From a virus: a stretch of 64,000 bases of DNA. The translations under genes and the position numbers were made by a program. Where the stretch lies: IMG/VR virus record IMGVR_UViG_3300038312_000193; one strand, 5' to 3'. This document shows, piece after piece, positions 9,775 to 58,500 of this stretch (positions are counted from its first letter, which is position 1; each line of letters opens with the position of its first letter). Below the pieces are notes generated by a model that worked only from the letters and a program-made list of their open reading frames with translations, was not told where the DNA came from and made no database searches.

Positions 9775-10503
9775 ATAGAACAATATTATGGAATTATTTA
9801 CTCAGCAACAAACATTATTAATAATAAAAAATATATCGGACAAACAAAATATACATTACATAAAAGAAAATTAGAGCATTTATCATCTTATAAAAGAAAG
9901 CAGAAAACTGTTTTTCAGAAAGCACTTAAAAAATATGGTGAAGAAAATTTTATTTGGGAAATTATTGATTATGCAAAAACTCCAGAAGAAATAGATTTAA
10001 AAGAACGATATTGGATTAATTATTATAATACTTTTAAATAAGATGGTTATAATATGAATCCAGGTGGGCAAGCATTTAAATTTACAGATGATGAATGGTT
10101 ACATATTTCTCTTCTTCATGATCATAGAAAAGTGATGGTGTTTAATAAAAAAGGTAATTACATAGAAACTGTGGCATCTAAGAAAATATTTTCTATTCAA
10201 TATGATTGTAGATTACAGGATACTATAATTGTATTAAATGATATAAAGAGTTCAGTAAAAGATTATATATTAATATATGAAGATGAATATTCAGAAGAAC
10301 TATTGATAAGTAAAATAAAAAGAACTAGAAATAATCGTGAATTTACTGTGAAAGATACAGAAGATAACCTAATTGGCACATGGGATAATCAAACTTATTG
10401 TGCGAATGAATTAAATATACATCGTGGTAATGTGAGTAAATGTTTATCGGGTAAATTGTCTAAATGCAATGGTTACATATTTCAATATGTAGATAATTTA
10501 TAA
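9775..10503 (+). pseudogene. GIY-YIG/NUMOD1 homing endonuclease interrupted by in-frame TAA (10039-10041)
   Basis: GIIY..YIGQT motif; reads YYNTFK*DGYNMNPGG in one frame; C-terminal NUMOD1-like CANELNI..GNVSKCL..K...GYIF. Confidence 0.85.
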
Positions 10504-10522
10504 TATTAAAAATATAATATAA

Positions 10523-10588
10523 ATATATTACATTATCTCCTTTTATATGATAAAATAAAATAAAAATATAAAAGGAGATATAATATAT
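10523..10588 (+). promoter_or_regulatory. Hairpin covering RBS and start of the tyrosine recombinase
   Basis: TATCTCCTTTTATAT (10534-48) is the exact reverse complement of ATATAAAAGGAGATA (10566-80). Confidence 0.65.
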
Positions 10589-11567
10589 GGAATCTTTATT
10601 GAATGAATTACTACAAAAAGTTTTAGAAGTAAATTCTATAAGTTCTAATATTAATTTAATAGAACTTAAAACACATTTTTCTTCTATATTGTATAAGTAT
10701 AATATAAATTATAAAACTGATAATATAGAAGATATTGATTTATCAAATTACATAAATATGTTTTTATCAATTAAAAAATTGGAAGGATTAAGTGATATTA
10801 CTTTAGATACTTATAAACTAGAACTTAATATATTTAACAAAAATATAAACAAATCATTACCTGCAATTACAAGTAATGATATTAGATTGTATTTATCTAA
10901 ATTTCCAAAATTGAAACAAAGTTCTATTGGAAAGAAAATATATGTTCTTAAATCATTCTTTAAAATTATGGTTAGAGAAGAGGTAATAATAAAAAATCCT
11001 ATGAACAAAATTAACGCTCCCAAAAAAGAAAAAAGATTACCAAAAGCATTATCTGAAGAACAAGTAGAAACACTTAGAGAGAATTGTACAACGTTACGTG
11101 AAAAAGCCATATTCGAGCTTTTTATTGCAACGGGTTGCCGTTTAAATGAGTTGTCTCAATTAAATATTAATGATATAAATTGGAAATATCAATCAATAAA
11201 AGTAATAGGAAAAGGTAATTCTGAAAGAATAGTTTATTTTAATTTTAAAGCAACTCATTATTTAAAAAAATACCTAAATAATAGGAATGATAATTGTGAA
11301 GCTTTATTTGTCACTGAAAGAAAAGAATATAGAAGATTATCCAATAGAGGGATACAAAGAATTTTTAATAATCTTGGAGATAAGGCAAATATAAAATTGC
11401 ACGTTCACAAGTGCCGCCACACATTTGCTTCTAATTTATTAAATTCAGGTGCAGACTTAGCATTAGTTCAAGCAATGTTAGGACATAGTTCTCCTGATAC
11501 CACTCAGGTATATTGTCAATTATCTGAGCAAAGTAAATATGATGGATATAGGCGATATGCTTCATAG
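10587..11567 (+). CDS. XerC/D-like tyrosine recombinase, catalytic residues intact
   Basis: SAM-like N-terminal domain; TGCRLNE (R), GKG (K), HKCRH (HxxR), LGH, TTQVY (Y). Confidence 0.95.
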   Translation: MESLLNELLQKVLEVNSISSNINLIELKTHFSSILYKYNINYKTDNIEDIDLSNYINMFLSIKKLEGLSDITLDTYKLELNIFNKNINKSLPAITSNDIRLYLSKFPKLKQSSIGKKIYVLKSFFKIMVREEVIIKNPMNKINAPKKEKRLPKALSEEQVETLRENCTTLREKAIFELFIATGCRLNELSQLNINDINWKYQSIKVIGKGNSERIVYFNFKATHYLKKYLNNRNDNCEALFVTERKEYRRLSNRGIQRIFNNLGDKANIKLHVHKCRHTFASNLLNSGADLALVQAMLGHSSPDTTQVYCQLSEQSKYDGYRRYAS

Positions 11568-11613: not shown

Positions 11614-11677
11614 ATCGTGATAAAACTTTAATTTGGTGTTGATTTTACCCCTTAGAAACGCCGAAATCTAGGCGTTT
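11614..11677. repeat. 12-6-12 palindromic site plus companion 7-8-7 palindrome next to the recombinase
   Basis: ATCGTGATAAAA-CTTTAA-TTTGGTGTTGAT, 12 bp, AAACGCC-GAAATCTA-GGCGTTT. Confidence 0.75.
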
Positions 11678-22146: not shown

Positions 22147-22167
22147 AACTTTCTCCTTTCAAAAAAA

Positions 22168-22197
22168 ATCAACACCAAATGTCTCTTTGGAACACAG
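22168..22197. repeat. 12-6-12 site abutting the TnpB right end
   Basis: ATCAACACCAAA-TGTCTC-TTTGGAACACAG. Confidence 0.75.
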
Positions 22198-22320
22198 TTG
22201 AAAAACTTTTCCTATTAAACCCAATAGGCTACCAGTCATTAACTAGGTTGTGTCCCGCAACATCTACTACTTCAACTACTTAAACTTATGCTATCCGTAG
22301 ATACTTTAAATTATTATATT
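22177..22320 (-). ncRNA. Putative TnpB omegaRNA (scaffold ending ..TTTTTCAAC, then guide)
   Basis: Non-coding 3' of tnpB with CCTATTGGGTTTAATAGG hairpin and IS200/605-type TCAA(C) end; 5' boundary uncertain. Confidence 0.6.
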
Positions 22321-23485
22321 TAGTAACTTTATATTGTGAGTTGTCGTTAAGAATATTAATTGCTCCATTAACATCTCTATGCATTATATAACCACAATTA
22401 CATTGATAATTTCTACCTTTTGGTGAATTTAAATTTCCACAACAAGGACACCTCTTGGAAGTCCAATATTCTTTAACTTTGATTAATTTAATATTACTTC
22501 TAATTAATTTATTTTCTAATTGTAACATTATCAATCCATAACACCATTGACTTAATTTTTGTCGAGTTTTTCTACTACCCCTCCCTTCTATTTTAGTATT
22601 TCTAGTACAATCATCTAAATCTCCGTAATAAACAATAGAAATATTATTTTGTAAACAATAATCTAAATAAAGCTTAGTGGTTTTATGTACTGCATCTAAG
22701 ATTTTATTATCAGTATCATATTTTAAATTTTGCATTGCTTTACTATATTTTTTATACTGTTTACTTCCTTTAATGCATTTGCTTTGTCTACTTCTTAATT
22801 TAGCTAACTCTTTATTTCTAAGTCTTTTTATACTTCTAATCTTTCTACCAGTAATTATAATTACATTCCCATTATTATCAATTGAAGTTATACTATGTAT
22901 TTCACCTAAATCTATAGCTGATTCATTATTGGATTGAATTAAATGTTGTTTATTTTCTTCTTTATATTTAATAGCTAGTTTTAAACCATTACGATAAACC
23001 AATTCAATCTCTACAATATTATTAGGAATGTTTTTTAGATGGCATTTAATAGGTTTTTGTCTTCTTTGTTCCTTTTGTTTATTTAATATCATTGGTTTTG
23101 CTAGAGTTAAATATTTTTCATCTTTATATATTTTAATATTTTGATATGTCCAACCAGTATTAAAAAATTTCTTTTCTTTATATGGTAGTTTAACTTTATT
23201 ACTATTTTCGTGTTTTGCCATTATTGATTTCCACATTGCATCCCTAGCAGTAACATATTTTATAATTACAAAATTAATACTATTTGCTAATAATATTGGA
23301 ACAGATTTTTTCATCATAAACTGCAATTCAGATTGAGTAAGAGATTTATTAAATTTCTTACGATTTTTTTGATCTGCTTTAACACAAGCATTCCATACTT
23401 TTGCTGAATATTTGTTACATTTCATAAGATAATCATAATCTTTTTTATTACAATTTACTGGCACTATTAATGTTTTATAAAGTAT
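22286..23485 (-). CDS. tnpB: Solo TnpB RNA-guided endonuclease (IS200/IS605 family, IS1341-like, no tnpA)
   Basis: AIDLG (RuvC-I), EYWTSKRCPCCG/CNCG Zn finger, HRDVNGAINI (RuvC-III); probable ATA start at 23485 after GGAGG. Confidence 0.92.
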   Translation of the reverse strand: MLYKTLIVPVNCNKKDYDYLMKCNKYSAKVWNACVKADQKNRKKFNKSLTQSELQFMMKKSVPILLANSINFVIIKYVTARDAMWKSIMAKHENSNKVKLPYKEKKFFNTGWTYQNIKIYKDEKYLTLAKPMILNKQKEQRRQKPIKCHLKNIPNNIVEIELVYRNGLKLAIKYKEENKQHLIQSNNESAIDLGEIHSITSIDNNGNVIIITGRKIRSIKRLRNKELAKLRSRQSKCIKGSKQYKKYSKAMQNLKYDTDNKILDAVHKTTKLYLDYCLQNNISIVYYGDLDDCTRNTKIEGRGSRKTRQKLSQWCYGLIMLQLENKLIRSNIKLIKVKEYWTSKRCPCCGNLNSPKGRNYQCNCGYIMHRDVNGAINILNDNSQYKVTKYNNLKYLRIA

Positions 23486-23517
23486 AATTAACCTCCTTCC
23501 TTATTGTTTTAAATAAT

Positions 23518-23581
23518 ATCAACACCAAACAAACCTTCTGTCATGATTTCATGTTTCACAAACGCCTATTTCTAGGCATTC
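23518..23581. repeat. 12-6-12 site plus companion upstream of tnpB
   Basis: ATCAACACCAAA-CAAACC-TTCTGTCATGAT, 12 bp, AAACGCC-TATTTCTA-GGCATTC. Confidence 0.75.
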
Positions 23582-24443: not shown

Positions 24444-26348
24444 TTATATATCTGACCCCTTATACCATTGTCTATTAGGGAAATCCTTTTCCCTTCTTAC
24501 TTCATGCCAATTTTTAATTGATGTTAAAAACCCAACTACTCTAGTAAACTTATTAATAATATTACCACCACAAATTGTACATTTATCACTAGTTGTAACA
24601 CATATATGACCTTTTTCACATTCAGCAATAACATAATTTATTGCAAAATAAACTACTCCCATTTTTGCACAAGTCTCAATTAAGTTTTCAATTTGAGTTA
24701 AATCTTCTATAGGAGTATCAATATTTATATGGGCAATTGCCCCTCCACTAAAGTGCTTATCAAAAACACCTTGTAATTTAATTCTATCTAATACATTTGC
24801 TTTAGTAGTAAGTGGTATAAATTGATTACTATAAATATTATATGTATCTTGATATTTTAAAACTTTATCTTTATTGGCAAGTTTAATTGATACATTTTCT
24901 GCTGGAATTTGCTCACAATTATGTGGTGTTTTATACTGTTTTGCACATTTATCGTTTTCAATATTTATAGTTTCAATAATACTTAATCCTAAGTCAATTC
25001 CATTTTGCTCTAAAATATTTTCTCCTAAAATGTCTATACACTCATTAAATCCATTAATACCAACGGTACTATATTGAGTATTGATATTAATAAAACCTAA
25101 TGTATATAAAGGATGATTGCCATTATTAATCCTCTTTTGAATTAATTTTCTTTTGGCATGATTTATTTTAGAACACAACTGGACTAAATGCGCTAATTCC
25201 ATATAAAATGTTTCTTTATTATTTTTATGCTTTATTGCCAATCTAGGGAGATTGATTGTAACTACCCCAAGACTACCAATTTTACTTGAACCTGAACCAA
25301 AACTATTAAAATATTCATTATTTTTGTCTGATCTCAACCGACAACATGAACTTAACGTAGAACTATCACCACAATAAATATTAATAAATCCATACTTCTG
25401 ATTATGTTTTGCTATAAATTTAATGAATTCCCTGTCTTTTATATTATTGTTTTCATCTATAGAAAAACAAGCAGTAGTAATTGGGAATGTAATAGGAGTT
25501 CTTTGCATTTCAGTATTCATAATAGTTAAGAACATATCTTGTAATTGTTTGATTATATTTATATCTAATCCACTACCATCTGGGAAAATATAATCATCTT
25601 TCATTGCTTCTAAAAATATATCATCATAAATGGATATATTAGTAAAACAACTTTGGTTTCCTCTCATTGGTTGATTAATAGTGTAAATAAAACTAATTAA
25701 ATTTTCCTTTATATACTTCCATGCATCTTCTTTAGTTGAAAACTTAAATTTAGCATCTGACAATGTACTAAGAATATTCTTAACATAATAACTCATTACA
25801 ATTAATAAATCAGCTAATCCAGTTGCTCCTAAAGTTGAGTTTGCTGCAATAATAGTAAATTGTTCAAGTTGTGATTTAAAGGAATAAAGATATTTTGGTG
25901 GAAAAGATTTAATTTTTTTGACCATCGGTAAACCTTTAGTCATAATATCGTATGTAGAATAATTATAGCAGTATGGGAGTCCTGCACCAATACCATGAAA
26001 ATCATTTATATAAATATCACCAATGAGGTTTCTTTCTACAGTTTCATTAGCAATCTCTAAATTAAATAATCTTCTTAATTCTTTCCAAACCATATAATAA
26101 CTATTTAACCGAAGGAAAGGTTTTGGTAATTCAGTACTATAGGCAATAACACTTATATCGTCAACATTAGCATTTGCATCAATACTAGCATCTGCCGTAG
26201 TTGATACTGAGAAAAACTTCTTACTGAATTTACTCATATCCGTTTGCTCACCAATTCCATCTAAATCAAATATTTTTGACGGATATTTTGACCGTAGATA
26301 CATCATTAAATCATCGAACTCTTGATCGTAACTAACTTTTATATACAT
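24444..26348 (-). CDS. nrdD: Class III anaerobic ribonucleotide reductase, no ATP cone
   Basis: SSCCRL, GSLGVVTINLPR, EQIPAE, C..GH..C..CG, TRVVGF glycyl radical motif. Confidence 0.93.
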   Translation of the reverse strand: MYIKVSYDQEFDDLMMYLRSKYPSKIFDLDGIGEQTDMSKFSKKFFSVSTTADASIDANANVDDISVIAYSTELPKPFLRLNSYYMVWKELRRLFNLEIANETVERNLIGDIYINDFHGIGAGLPYCYNYSTYDIMTKGLPMVKKIKSFPPKYLYSFKSQLEQFTIIAANSTLGATGLADLLIVMSYYVKNILSTLSDAKFKFSTKEDAWKYIKENLISFIYTINQPMRGNQSCFTNISIYDDIFLEAMKDDYIFPDGSGLDINIIKQLQDMFLTIMNTEMQRTPITFPITTACFSIDENNNIKDREFIKFIAKHNQKYGFINIYCGDSSTLSSCCRLRSDKNNEYFNSFGSGSSKIGSLGVVTINLPRLAIKHKNNKETFYMELAHLVQLCSKINHAKRKLIQKRINNGNHPLYTLGFININTQYSTVGINGFNECIDILGENILEQNGIDLGLSIIETINIENDKCAKQYKTPHNCEQIPAENVSIKLANKDKVLKYQDTYNIYSNQFIPLTTKANVLDRIKLQGVFDKHFSGGAIAHINIDTPIEDLTQIENLIETCAKMGVVYFAINYVIAECEKGHICVTTSDKCTICGGNIINKFTRVVGFLTSIKNWHEVRREKDFPNRQWYKGSDI

Positions 26349-45119: not shown

Positions 45120-45818
45120 TTAAGTATTTATATACCTATACTCACCAAAGTATTCTATTTCTGCTTGCTTTCTAACTTCAACAGCTTCATCGAAAATATC
45201 AAAGTAACCTAAATGAATATGTTTATTATTTATAGTAATATATGCCCTCCATTTTTCTTTATCTTCTCGCCAAACAACTCCTTTAATACCAGATGTATTA
45301 TTACTTTGAGTCCTTCTATTCATTTGATTCTGACTTGGAGTAACTATTCTTAGAAATTCCTTTCGGCAATCAAATTTTTTATGAAAAATATGATCTACCT
45401 CCATATCGTCAGGACAGTTCATAATAATTCTGTGCATAAGTATCTTATTATACCCAGTTACAATATAACCATCTTTGTTAAAATGCCAACTATAATTTTT
45501 TATTTTATTATAGTCTTCTAAATCAAACCAAAATTTTTCTTTTTTAAAAGTCCATCCTACTCCATACTCACCTGATAAATCGTATGTATTATGATTTTTG
45601 TTTATTTGACTTATTTCTTTAATTTTTTCTCTTTGTAAGCAACCGCATGATTTAGTATGTCCACTTCTTAAACTTGATCCCTTTATCACTTTTAAACTAT
45701 TTTCACCTTCACAATTACATTGGCATAACCACTGAGGTTGACCCTGTTTGTCATTTTCTGCCCTTTCTAATACAGTCAATCTTCCAAATGTTTTATTTTT
45801 TAAATCTATAATAGCCAA
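45120..45818 (-). CDS. HNH-AP2 homing endonuclease
   Basis: FGRLTV, WLCQC.C, TKSCGC, VDHI, NTSGIKGV...KWRA.I...HLG.F. Confidence 0.85.
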   Translation of the reverse strand: MAIIDLKNKTFGRLTVLERAENDKQGQPQWLCQCNCEGENSLKVIKGSSLRSGHTKSCGCLQREKIKEISQINKNHNTYDLSGEYGVGWTFKKEKFWFDLEDYNKIKNYSWHFNKDGYIVTGYNKILMHRIIMNCPDDMEVDHIFHKKFDCRKEFLRIVTPSQNQMNRRTQSNNTSGIKGVVWREDKEKWRAYITINNKHIHLGYFDIFDEAVEVRKQAEIEYFGEYRYINT

Positions 45819-52182: not shown

Positions 52183-52491
52183 TTTATGTATTATTATCCT
52201 CCTTATTTTTATTTTATGCTTTTAATAGTTTTTTTTCAGAAAATCATGCCTCACAAACGCCCAAATTTCGGACTTCATTTCTGCACCAAATAGAGAATTT
52301 ATCAACACTCCTCTTTAAATGCCTCGTAACACCCTTTTGTATATTCAATTATTTCCATGTCTTCACAATCATTACAATTAAGACTACAAGAGTATTGCCC
52401 ATCTGTGATTTCTTCTACGTCAGCACACCAACTGCCGTATGTATTACACCATTTAGCCATATTTACCTCCAATCATTATGAAACATAGTTT

Positions 52492-55599: not shown

Positions 55600-58500
55600 T
55601 TAATCTTCATTTTCAATATTTATATTAATAAATATTTCATCCTTTACTATTTCTACTTCTTGACCAACATTATGATATTCTGATTCTCCCAACCATTTTA
55701 TTCCTATGTATGATACAGACTTATTATTTCTCATAAAATCAATATGAGTAATGTCACTATATTTATTAACTCTTTCATATTCTGGTTTATTCTTAATTAT
55801 TAATTTTGCTTGCGTTGCACTTTTGTCCAATTCAAAACCGTCATTTTTTCGATAACAAATATTATTTATAAATAATCTTTCTTTAATATCTCCTAACCAT
55901 ATAAATCTAACATCACTCATCGGAACTTGTATTACTTCACAATTTTCAAAAACTATATCAATTCTATCTATTTGTTTTCCCATTACTTCTCCTTTCTAAA
56001 ATCAACACCAAATTGATGATTTATTATATTATTTATTTTGGTAATATAGACATTAATACATTTCTTAAATCTATATTGTCTATTTCTTTTCCAGTTTCAA
56101 CTTCTCTAATAGATAAATTATCTTGTATATCTAAATTTCCTTGAAAAGTAACTATTTTACCTAATTCAGTTTCCCAAACTAATCCTAGAATTTTCTCATG
56201 GTCTACAATAACATACATTGGTTTACTTTCTCTCATATTAACTCCTTTCTTTAATCACTACCAAAGTGATATTCTATTTAATAAAGTGATCCATTTTTTA
56301 TTGATCTCCCAATAATATAACTTATTATTATAACAACTATAGGAACAACATATTTAGGGAATGTAACACAACCTATTATGACCCCTATTATTATACTGAT
56401 TATTAAACCTATTAGTATTAATCCTATTAAACCTAACAATACTGTCACAAGGATATCTAATAAAATATCTTTCAAAATAAAATAATTTCCTTTCTTTAAA
56501 GTTTGAATGAAACGTAGATTTGGTAACGAAATATTATCGTATTTCATAATGTACGCAATATGTAATTCCTTTAACACAACATTCATCTTCTTTATGTTCA
56601 TCAATATATTCACAATCAGAGCAATTCTTTTTCTTATAACATGAATTACATAAACATAATTTAACGCACATATCTTACCTCCAAATTATTATAGAATACA
56701 GTATTGAATTGATTTTATTATTTATATCTTTCATAGTCTTTATCTGTCATTAACTCATATGAAAAATCATTTAATTCACCATATCCTTTTTCTACACATT
56801 CATCTATATGTAAAACACAATCCTCTTCGGAATCAAATCTGTCAGACCATAATTCTCCATTTAATAAGACTTTCCACTCCACAACATCTTCATATTTATA
56901 TCTACTCATATTAATCCTTTCTTAAATATTGTTTTAAAACATTCATTTGGTTTTAACTTTCTACTTTTACCCAAAACCCATCTGCAAAATTTTCTTCAAC
57001 TTCCTTGATAGAATAATTTACATTTTCTTCTATCTCTCCATCTTCTACCCAAGTAATTATATATTTATTATCTTTCATTATTAAATTATATAGGTGATTT
57101 TCAGTAGGAAATTTTTCTATTAAATCTTGACTTAATCTAAATTTTACTTGCAAATTTAAACTCCTTTCTAATATTTAATCCAAAACTAGATTCTGATTAA
57201 ACTCTAATAAATCTATCAAGATATTTTTTCATGACTTCTTCAGTCTTATTAACTTTAATTACTTCATCTATATATTTGTTACAATCTTTACACATATATG
57301 GACTTACATGATTTTTGATATCAGATAATGCCCAAGCATAACCAAGCCTTAAAACACTTTCAAATTGCTTTGTAGGAAACATGTCATTAAATAAGTTTGT
57401 TACTTCTTGATTAATTGGATTTTCTTTACGTCTAAATTCCATAATTTCTTCAATTCTATTTAAGTAATCTTTATCATTAGTCATATGTATTTCCTTTCTT
57501 TATTTTAATAATTTTATAAAAGAGAAATTTGGTTGAAATTAATCTAAAACTTGTTTAATCGTATGTGTTAACCCAACGCCTAATAAAAATAAACAATAGG
57601 CTATTGTAATAATAACAAGGGTAGGTTTATCAAAAACGAACATCATGATAAAACCAATTGGAGCTAAAATGCACAAAGGAACCCCAATAATATAAGGCAA
57701 CAAAGATAAAAAACGATCCATAATTCTCCTTTCTATATTGAGTTAAAAGGGTTATTTGATTACGATTCTAATCCCAACCTTCAGTAACATCTAATACCTC
57801 ACCGCATTCACATTCAACTTTGACGACATCATCTAATCCAGTAGGAATAAACGTATAACTCAATCTTACACCCGTAACGTCACCACGTTTACTTGCATTG
57901 CATTTATGACCAGTTTCAGCATTATCCCATTGTTTAATTTTTTCTATTTGGGTATCACTTAATTCAAATACTCTCATAACTGCCTCCCTTCACTCGTTAT
58001 AAAATCGGGGTTTTAATCTATTAATTGTTTAATTATTTCTTCTTTATCTTTTTTAGATAACTTATCACTTTCTTTTAACAATCCTAAAGCATCTTCTTTA
58101 TGTTCTAGTAGATATTTTTTAATATATTTCGATTTCATTTGTTTGATATAATTAAATTCATTCCATACCTTTTTAATAAAAGGATAAATCTTATCTAAAA
58201 AATCATCGTTATCTATAAGATGTATATATTCCAGAATAAAATTACCAATACTATTATTTTTTAATCCTGTCAATTTGGCATAATCAATATTATCTAATAT
58301 AATTTTTACTTCATTTTCATTTAAATTTTGATATTTATAAATATTTGCAAAATTATTTCCATGCGTTTCAGTCATTTTTTGTCCCATTAATTTAAGATAC
58401 TTTTCTGTTTTTAATAATGGATTTCTCAATACATATTGCCAAGGTATTTCCGAATAATTTTTATTACATTGCTCTTTAACGGATTTCAAAGAACTACTAC

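Follow-up and report, generated by a model that had tools for sequence, protein, structure and literature searches.

The known role of TnpB is to help restore the transposon that carries it once this has been excised, and the closest described relatives of the locus reported here are the TnpB-omegaRNA systems of the IS200/IS605 insertion sequences (IS), such as ISDra2 and Geobacillus IS605 (PMC8612924, PMC10690162; reviewed in PMC13565253). In these systems the omegaRNA lies at the 3′ end of the gene and its guide is read from the adjacent flank. The element-free allele is targeted, whereas in the occupied allele the element end takes the place of the target-adjacent motif (TAM) and so protects it. 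Here we describe a tnpB gene on the minus strand (23547-22168) of a large phage of low GC content (27%), contained in IMG/VR record IMGVR_UViG_3300038312_000193; the whole 64,000-nucleotide (nt) stretch analysed is referred to as the window. It derives from a contig of 146 kb out of a fermentation metagenome. The gene belongs to the same protein family and would share the arrangement of guide, target and protected allele. Unlike IS200/IS605, however, it is part of a large clade without a transposase, and the phage locus has no TnpA, left end or transposon copies. The sequence flanking it always consists of spacer and right arm from a single family of palindromic sites, its candidate TAM is TARAW rather than TTGAT or TTTAT, and its target would be a rival phage, not a sister chromosome. 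On balance, and with some reserve, we favour the reading that this is a free-standing, probably active TnpB that acts as an RNA-guided homing or exclusion nuclease aimed at gene-junction sites.

In that role it would resemble the free-standing homing endonucleases of T4-like phages (Seg and Mob, known from intron-less homing and marker exclusion). As with these enzymes, a nuclease gene with phage genes on either side is located in a mosaic region, where genetic exchange has its boundaries, and is predicted to cut the nuclease-free allele of a co-infecting relative. Unlike Seg and Mob, the phage TnpB would recognise its target by an RNA guide and TAM rather than by protein, and its target would belong to a repeated set of regulatory or recombination sites, each made distinct by its 6-bp spacer. 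Non-restorative homing of TnpB into co-infecting phages has been raised in a review as a theoretical possibility only (PMC13565253). In the literature searched with TnpB as a term, we found no description of an association between TnpB and palindromic junction sites.

The core of the locus consists of the following features:
22286-23485, minus strand: tnpB frame of 399 codons, with the likely start codon ATA at 23485-23483.
23492-23500, minus strand: ribosome-binding site (RBS) of tnpB, GGAAGGAGG, read directly; the upstream similarity of relatives ends just 5′ of it.
22186-22272, minus strand: omegaRNA scaffold in the 3′ untranslated region, a region conserved in about 80 relatives.
22166-22185, minus strand: predicted guide, made up of GAGACA (22185-22180), TTTGGTGTTGAT (22179-22168) and 2 nt.

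Read along the minus strand, a first copy of the 12-mer TTTGGTGTTGAT is separated from the tnpB start by about 32 nt (17 nt, then the RBS at 23500-23492). The gene is followed by about 100 nt of non-coding sequence that includes TTTTTCAAC and TGTGTTCCAAA, then by GAGACA and the second TTTGGTGTTGAT, beyond which lie a run of T and the RBS of a gene of 73 amino acids (aa). An original prediction, made from the letters of the window, had read the same order, and this part of it stands. It had also ended the scaffold at TTTTTCAAC and begun the guide at TGTGTTCC, and both of these boundaries had to be moved. For this, about 130 loci of relatives were gathered (591 protein homologues in total). The 3′ regions of the relatives start with a RAGTAGTARA box and end with a short strand, an NAA linker, six variable bases and TTTNRT. 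In the window, the scaffold comprises a first stem with loop GGGACACA (22256-22249), two hairpins, the 3′ strand TGTGTTCC (22196-22189) and AAA (22188-22186), and its 5′ boundary probably lies inside the end of the open reading frame (ORF). TTTTTCAAC is a shortened third hairpin, the full version of which is present in most relatives.

The loop GGGACACA pairs with the strand TGTGTTCC. All six pairs form in 76 of 77 sequences through 38 distinct pair combinations, and 5.97 pairs were observed as compared with a mean of 4.5 after permuting the loops among sequences. Because of this covariation we assign TGTGTTCC to the scaffold, where by its pairing it is the 3′ strand of an omegaRNA pseudoknot and not the arm of a phage site. 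The guide start had accordingly been set 11 nt too early. Moreover, all relatives conserve TGTGTTCC-AAA next to TnpB, and the window contains no further copy of it. Since the scaffold extends through TGTGTTCC-AAA, the downstream 'site' is a hybrid of the omegaRNA end, the spacer and a genuine right arm. Folding of the omegaRNA as a single sequence was not significant (z-score -0.96), and Rfam gave no match for it. A further candidate stem, CCAAA/TTTGG around the spacer, was rejected as it showed no consistent covariation.

The start of the guide was placed by comparing occupied with TnpB-free alleles. The TnpB-bearing locus L020 and contig G001:C25 (the phage of L097, TnpB-free at this position) are 79% identical over 575 nt on the left side. 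At the breakpoint a cassette of about 1.37 kb in L020 stands in place of 19 nt, and to the right of it the two share 27 identical nt, the first of which is the start of the spacer. The guide of L017 and L023 (spacer TCTCTA plus right arm) is also found TnpB-free, in IMG/VR loci L150/L154 and L153 and in the window itself:
52279-52308, minus strand: TnpB-free junction site, an exact protospacer for the L017/L023 guides (18/18 match to L017).

The right flank of L017 matches the window here in 57 of 58 aligned nt (98%). Because the comparisons of both L020 and L017/L023 break at the junction of linker and spacer, we set the guide boundary there: the guide would begin after the AAA linker, at the spacer, and that of the window would be GAGACA plus TTTGGTGTTGAT, roughly 22185-22166. 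Relatives' guides thus match TnpB-free alleles at 100%, in the case of L020 in G001:C25 and in that of L017/L023 in the window, L150, L153 and L154, which lends substance to the earlier suggestion of homing against rival phages. With one mismatch in 16 nt, the L056 guide also matches a TnpB-free site in L069, and the L072 guide matches L007. An element right end after TTTNRT, with the hexamer as a cleavage site, was rejected because TnpB-free alleles share the spacer too. A comparison of L029 with window positions 45140-45180 as a possible empty site was also rejected, the two differing by two genes between diverged phages. In L029 (2850-4760), about 2 kb made up of a promoter, the TnpB gene and a small ORF lie between an AP2/HNH-like gene and a conserved downstream gene, and are absent from the window.

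The bases that precede the spacer differ between targets and TnpB loci. In all four independent TnpB-free protospacers the preceding six bases are ATAAAA, ATAAAT or ATAGAT, and the protospacer at 52279-52308 of the window is preceded by GATAAAT. TA at positions -5 and -4 was found in 4/4 natural targets but in 0/66 distinct TnpB loci, as compared with 34/138 arm cores of ordinary sites. The commonest scaffold ends at TnpB loci are TCCAAA, ACCAAA and ACAAAA. Because TA is present in every target and wholly avoided at self loci, the data point to a candidate TAM of approximately TA(A/G)A(A/T) (TARAW), and not to the TTGAT previously proposed. TTGAT as a TAM by analogy with phage E3 was rejected, since in both E3 and L076 TTGATA serves as the -35 box of a promoter whose spacer is 17 nt long. 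The empty allele expected by the original prediction, TTGAT|(C)TGTGTTCCAAAGAGACA, is also of the wrong form, since the guide starts at the spacer. The asymmetry between the 5′ and 3′ sides, together with the avoidance of TA, argues that targeting would be under selection.

TTGAT does stand directly before the AT-rich stretch that precedes the RBS, as would be expected of an ordinary non-autonomous IS200/IS605 element inserted 3′ of TTGAT and served by TnpA in trans. In addition, Desulfosporosinus and Thermincola carry more distant relatives (38% identity), which are classical IS elements of the TnpB-only kind with clear ends and with TTTAT as their TAM. We nevertheless regard such an origin as highly improbable for this locus. 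A Y1 transposase (TnpA) was not found among the 17 ORFs within about 5 kb of tnpB that were checked against Pfam, and the description of a solo TnpB is upheld. A conserved left end with a hairpin, whose absence had also been noted before, was not found in the upstream sequences of 43 distinct relatives, which share nothing beyond the RBS; among close relatives similarity begins at the RBS, with no conserved boundary. The window, G001:C25 and G003 each have one tnpB copy and G002 has one plus a doubtful second, and several near-identical element copies per genome, as in IS200/IS605, were not found in any of the four. Finally, the empty allele shows 19 nt replaced rather than a simple insertion after a TAM.

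As a homing or exclusion nuclease, tnpB would occupy the former place of a site's left arm, such that the pseudoknot strand of the scaffold and its AAA abut the 6-bp spacer. The guide transcript would then consist of spacer and right arm, with the unique, GC-rich spacer serving as the TAM-proximal seed. In a co-infecting relative with the same junction but no TnpB, the site's own left arm would supply the TAM-like ATA(A/G)A(A/T), and the ribonucleoprotein would cut that junction. Repair from the TnpB-bearing genome might copy the gene in (homing), or the cut might merely damage the rival. The TnpB-bearing allele would be immune, with the scaffold end TCCAAA in place of the left arm. What the analysis establishes is the protein family, the structure of the scaffold, the boundary of the guide, that the site family is real, the existence of natural protospacers free of TnpB and the contrast in the 5′ motif; cleavage, the TAM itself and homing are inferred.

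The sites into which the guide reads form a family. The exact 12-mer TTTGGTGTTGAT has four copies in the 64 kb (11632+, 22168-, 23518- and 56001-), all intergenic, and its 9-nt core has four occurrences in the window against 0.34 expected. Only the 12-mers directly after TnpB in close relatives, 25 distinct ones, were used to build a position weight matrix (PWM), and inverted pairs 6 nt apart were scored. This gave 16 bipartite sites in the window, 25 in G001:C25, 16 in G003 and 12 in G002, compared with about 0.15-1.2 in shuffled sequences (about 0.15-0.4 for shuffles of the window). The site family is real, and the guide does, as predicted, read into a junction site that is palindromic and repeated. 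The consensus has the form of a 12-6-12 palindrome with a half-site resembling TTTTATCATGAT. The sites are placed at gene junctions, usually right before an RBS, and are often phased to a terminator-like hairpin. The copies of the tnpB right arm elsewhere in the window, and the hairpin beside one of them, are as follows:
23518-23547, minus strand: complete 12-6-12 site upstream of tnpB, PWM score 21.7.
23561-23580, minus strand: terminator-like companion hairpin of the 7-8-7 type, phased to the upstream site, read directly.
11614-11643, plus strand: full site at a gene junction, its right arm identical to that of the tnpB guide, PWM score 21.9.
56001-56012, minus strand: exact 12-mer right arm, the fourth in the window, immediately before an RBS.

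The upstream site is composed of a left arm (23547-23536), the spacer GGTTTG and the right arm TTTGGTGTTGAT (23529-23518). The 18-bp core pattern AYNAAA-N6-TTTNRT occurs 38 times in Geobacillus virus E3 (KP144388) against 5 in a reversed control, and 20 times against 4 in SPbeta (NC_001884), a 5- to 8-fold enrichment over the control. One SPbeta copy of the core (2628-2645) falls inside an annotated stem_loop (2622-2651). The family also recalls the SPbeta repeated element (SPBRE) operators of MrpR, a recombinase-fold repressor (PMC10516654), in that a large temperate Firmicute phage carries a repeated intergenic element with a possibly recombinase-like binder; the likeness is one of general arrangement, and SPbeta has no known link to TnpB. 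A conserved, apparently structured leader of about 90 nt (closing helix GGAGCGA...GCTCC) was seen between a consensus promoter and the junction site in L020 (430-570), L138 (1130-1260) and L027. Rfam gave no match for the L020 leader.

TnpB is tied to these sites through the guide end, because the 3′ side of the association is universal while the 5′ side is found in 4/43 relatives. The order pseudoknot-NAA-6 nt-TTTNRT is kept at fixed spacing in 77/77 relatives of 46-100% identity. A full site within 100 nt upstream was found in only four of the 43 distinct relatives, the window included, as compared with a background of 1%. The window locus has sites on both sides, a full one at 23518-23547 and the hybrid at 22168-22196. 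Of the two flanking sites that had been claimed, the upstream one is a complete 12-6-12 site and the downstream one is only half so, consisting of the omegaRNA end, spacer and right arm; likewise, capture of tnpB as a cassette between two sites describes this locus but fails as a general rule. The upstream similarity of close relatives is lost right at the RBS, and between L019 and L021 a module of hairpin plus site forms a 118-nt indel between promoter and RBS.

The spacers beside TnpB are hypervariable (60 distinct hexamers) and have 46% GC, compared with 22-24% in the flanks. Three exact reverse-complement pairs occur among the hexamers against 0.41 expected (P = 0.006). Two of these pairs have different right arms, the outcome to be expected from reading or inverting a palindromic site. 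Individual loci show further rearrangements. In the third pair, formed by the near-identical orthologous loci L026 and L036, the spacer is exactly reverse-complemented beside the same right arm and the same downstream gene. L021 and L022 have tnpB genes that are 100% identical and share the 5′ flank, then diverge directly after spacer and TTT; an additional hairpin module of 39 nt is present in one of the two, and different genes follow downstream. In L094 and L095 a second, degraded omegaRNA tail with its spacer and right arm directly precedes the start of the TnpB gene, an arrangement that looks like tandem or serial occupation of one junction.

Such a family of sites could also be the substrate of an Xer-like tyrosine recombinase, and this gives the main rival to a homing or exclusion nuclease: TnpB would be a passenger cassette of site-specific recombination, and its 'guide' simply the next site, with no selected targeting. 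The window encodes a tyrosine recombinase (10587-11567; Pfam Phage_integrase, 3.5e-40), with a full site 47 nt past its stop codon, plus a hairpin, and the 12-6-12 geometry resembles that of dif-type sites. As in Xer/dif, integrative mobile elements exploiting Xer (IMEX) and integron attC cassettes, inverted arms surround a 6-bp spacer, junctions fall at the spacer edges, a recombinase gene has an adjacent site, and small gene modules are separated by sites. Mosaic breakpoints are seen at both edges, between left arm and spacer in the L020 and L017/L023 comparisons and after the spacer in L021/L022. The window locus is flanked by sites on both sides, and the scaffold ends of many relatives (e.g. 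ACCAAA) are perfect left-arm cores. Unlike in the described cassette systems, however, the phage spacers are all different, recombination is putative, and a minority of TnpB copies are flanked by sites on both sides. The 4/43 upstream sites stand against 77/77 guide-end sites, and the catalytic residues of TnpB are invariant. The absence of TA at -5 and -4 from self loci and its presence in all protospacers is hard to explain without selection for targeting. Moreover, a recombinase-fold repressor could equally use the sites as its operators, as with MrpR and SPBRE in SPbeta (PMC10516654). We therefore consider a mere passenger rather unlikely, although placement by a recombinase and use as a homing nuclease are not mutually exclusive.

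The protein itself has the features of a full-length TnpB with a rearranged RuvC-II. The tnpB frame matches the Pfam families OrfB_IS605 (PF01385, 1.7e-10) and Cas12f1-like_TNB (PF07282, 1.1e-18). Among the 591 homologues the best outside relatives are about 82% identical, many homologues are carried on 100-170-kb contigs, and the nearest from an isolate is gp153 of Geobacillus virus E3 (58% identity). D192, E339, D371 and the four zinc-finger cysteines are invariant in an alignment of 30 sequences. The canonical RuvC-II glutamate position, by alignment to the solved Cas12f 9nzq, is occupied by G288 (motif YYGDLD), and the invariant E339 is likely the relocated RuvC-II glutamate. In the parts of Altae-Tran et al. 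(2023, PMC10691335) consulted, a Gly-for-Glu swap with an alternative Glu is described as a RuvC-II rearrangement that is predicted to be active, with some branches specific to viruses. The phage TnpB resembles these RuvC-II-rearranged (RIIr) clades in the Gly at the canonical position, the alternative Glu just before the zinc finger and carriage by viruses; the likeness is at clade level, with no named branch, and those parts of that paper describe no fixed association of guides with palindromic junctions. Near the strong RBS there is no ATG, GTG or TTG, and ATA lies 6 nt after the RBS. The ATA codon is kept 6-10 nt past the RBS in L002, L004, L005, L006, L017 and L021, with ATG in E3 and L003, so that a weak, non-canonical ATA start looks like a trait of the whole clade.

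The palindrome at which the guide is directed is conserved and looks regulatory, with a terminator-like hairpin on one side and an RBS on the other, and the right arm of the guide is found three more times in the window. The guide might thus serve an RNA-guided DNA binder that, like TldR, modulates transcription at guide-matching junctions or blocks a recombinase or repressor there, and domestication of TnpB as a repressor is known (PMC10705468). TldRs, however, are truncated and inactivated, by RuvC loss and C-terminal truncation, whereas the window protein is full length and its rearranged RuvC residues and zinc finger are invariant. Moreover, all or most of the six seed positions are mismatched to the guide at the three further sites that share its arm. 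We consider a regulatory role quite unlikely.

Several observations weigh against a homing or exclusion nuclease, at least in the window. The scaffold here (22197-22210, minus strand) lacks the third hairpin of the TTAAAT...ATTTAA type, and the start codon of its tnpB is the weak ATA. The TAM is deduced from four independent sites, and in many distant relatives the scaffold end (e.g. ACCAAA) is a perfect left-arm core, which fits a recombinase site and leaves the distinction of self from non-self to two positions only. Right-flank identity in the best occupied/empty pair extends over only 27 nt, and the L017/L023 pairs have non-syntenic left flanks in a highly mosaic region; these short and non-syntenic flanks weigh against clean homing by homologous recombination. 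The empty allele expected for the window's own guide was not found in IMG/VR, where a scan with the 18-nt guide gave no target and four chance matches inside coding regions, and a 15-nt scan gave at least 119 matches, overwhelmingly to unrelated sequence, with no usable site. A protein search with the adjacent 73-aa gene found it on 3 contigs only, all with TnpB and none with an empty allele. In a search by synteny from the neighbouring NrdD (10 IMG/VR loci), synteny ended right after NrdG and no empty allele could be read.

The lost hairpin, the ATA start and the unremarkable folding z-score (-0.96) might also indicate a decaying, non-functional remnant kept by linkage alone. Against this, the 399-codon frame is intact with all clade-invariant residues, the ATA start is common to many relatives and thus a clade trait, and the same third hairpin is likewise shortened in L042 and L046. 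A remnant therefore seems very unlikely.

A more specific scheme, which we put forward tentatively and hold to be possible rather than probable, would have this phage TnpB lineage fuse the 3′ end of its omegaRNA to one half, the left, of a recombination or operator site of the dif-like type. Each placement, whether by a tyrosine recombinase or by homing, would then automatically reprogram the nuclease, with the spacer as seed, to attack rival genomes that have the same junction without TnpB. This would amount to an RNA-guided gene drive built on a site-specific cassette system. In the present clade, the guide end is the only link to the palindromic junction sites, which form a single family in large Firmicute phages, and natural targets can be seen in related phages. 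If cleavage is confirmed, nature would provide an example of intron-less homing or interference among viruses that is guided by RNA, and this would explain why phages carry such a RuvC-II-rearranged TnpB clade. It would also make available a compact nuclease whose scaffold is short and defined, whose guide start has been mapped and whose TAM can be tested. Moreover, the mosaic boundaries of these phage genomes are tied to a specific pair of nuclease and site.

Lastly, the neighbours of tnpB in the window are genes of nucleotide metabolism, encoding glutaredoxin, NrdD, NrdG, dUTPase, a ThyX-like protein, a dNMP kinase and a 5′-nucleotidase. NrdD of L014, L015 and L016, relatives of the window copy (24444-26348), matches in two or three pieces that are 0.8-1.3 kb apart, which suggests intron, intein or endonuclease insertions without a counterpart in the window. 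Elsewhere in the window, an I-HmuI/NUMOD-like protein (10054-10503) is encoded ahead of the Xer-like tyrosine recombinase (10587-11567).

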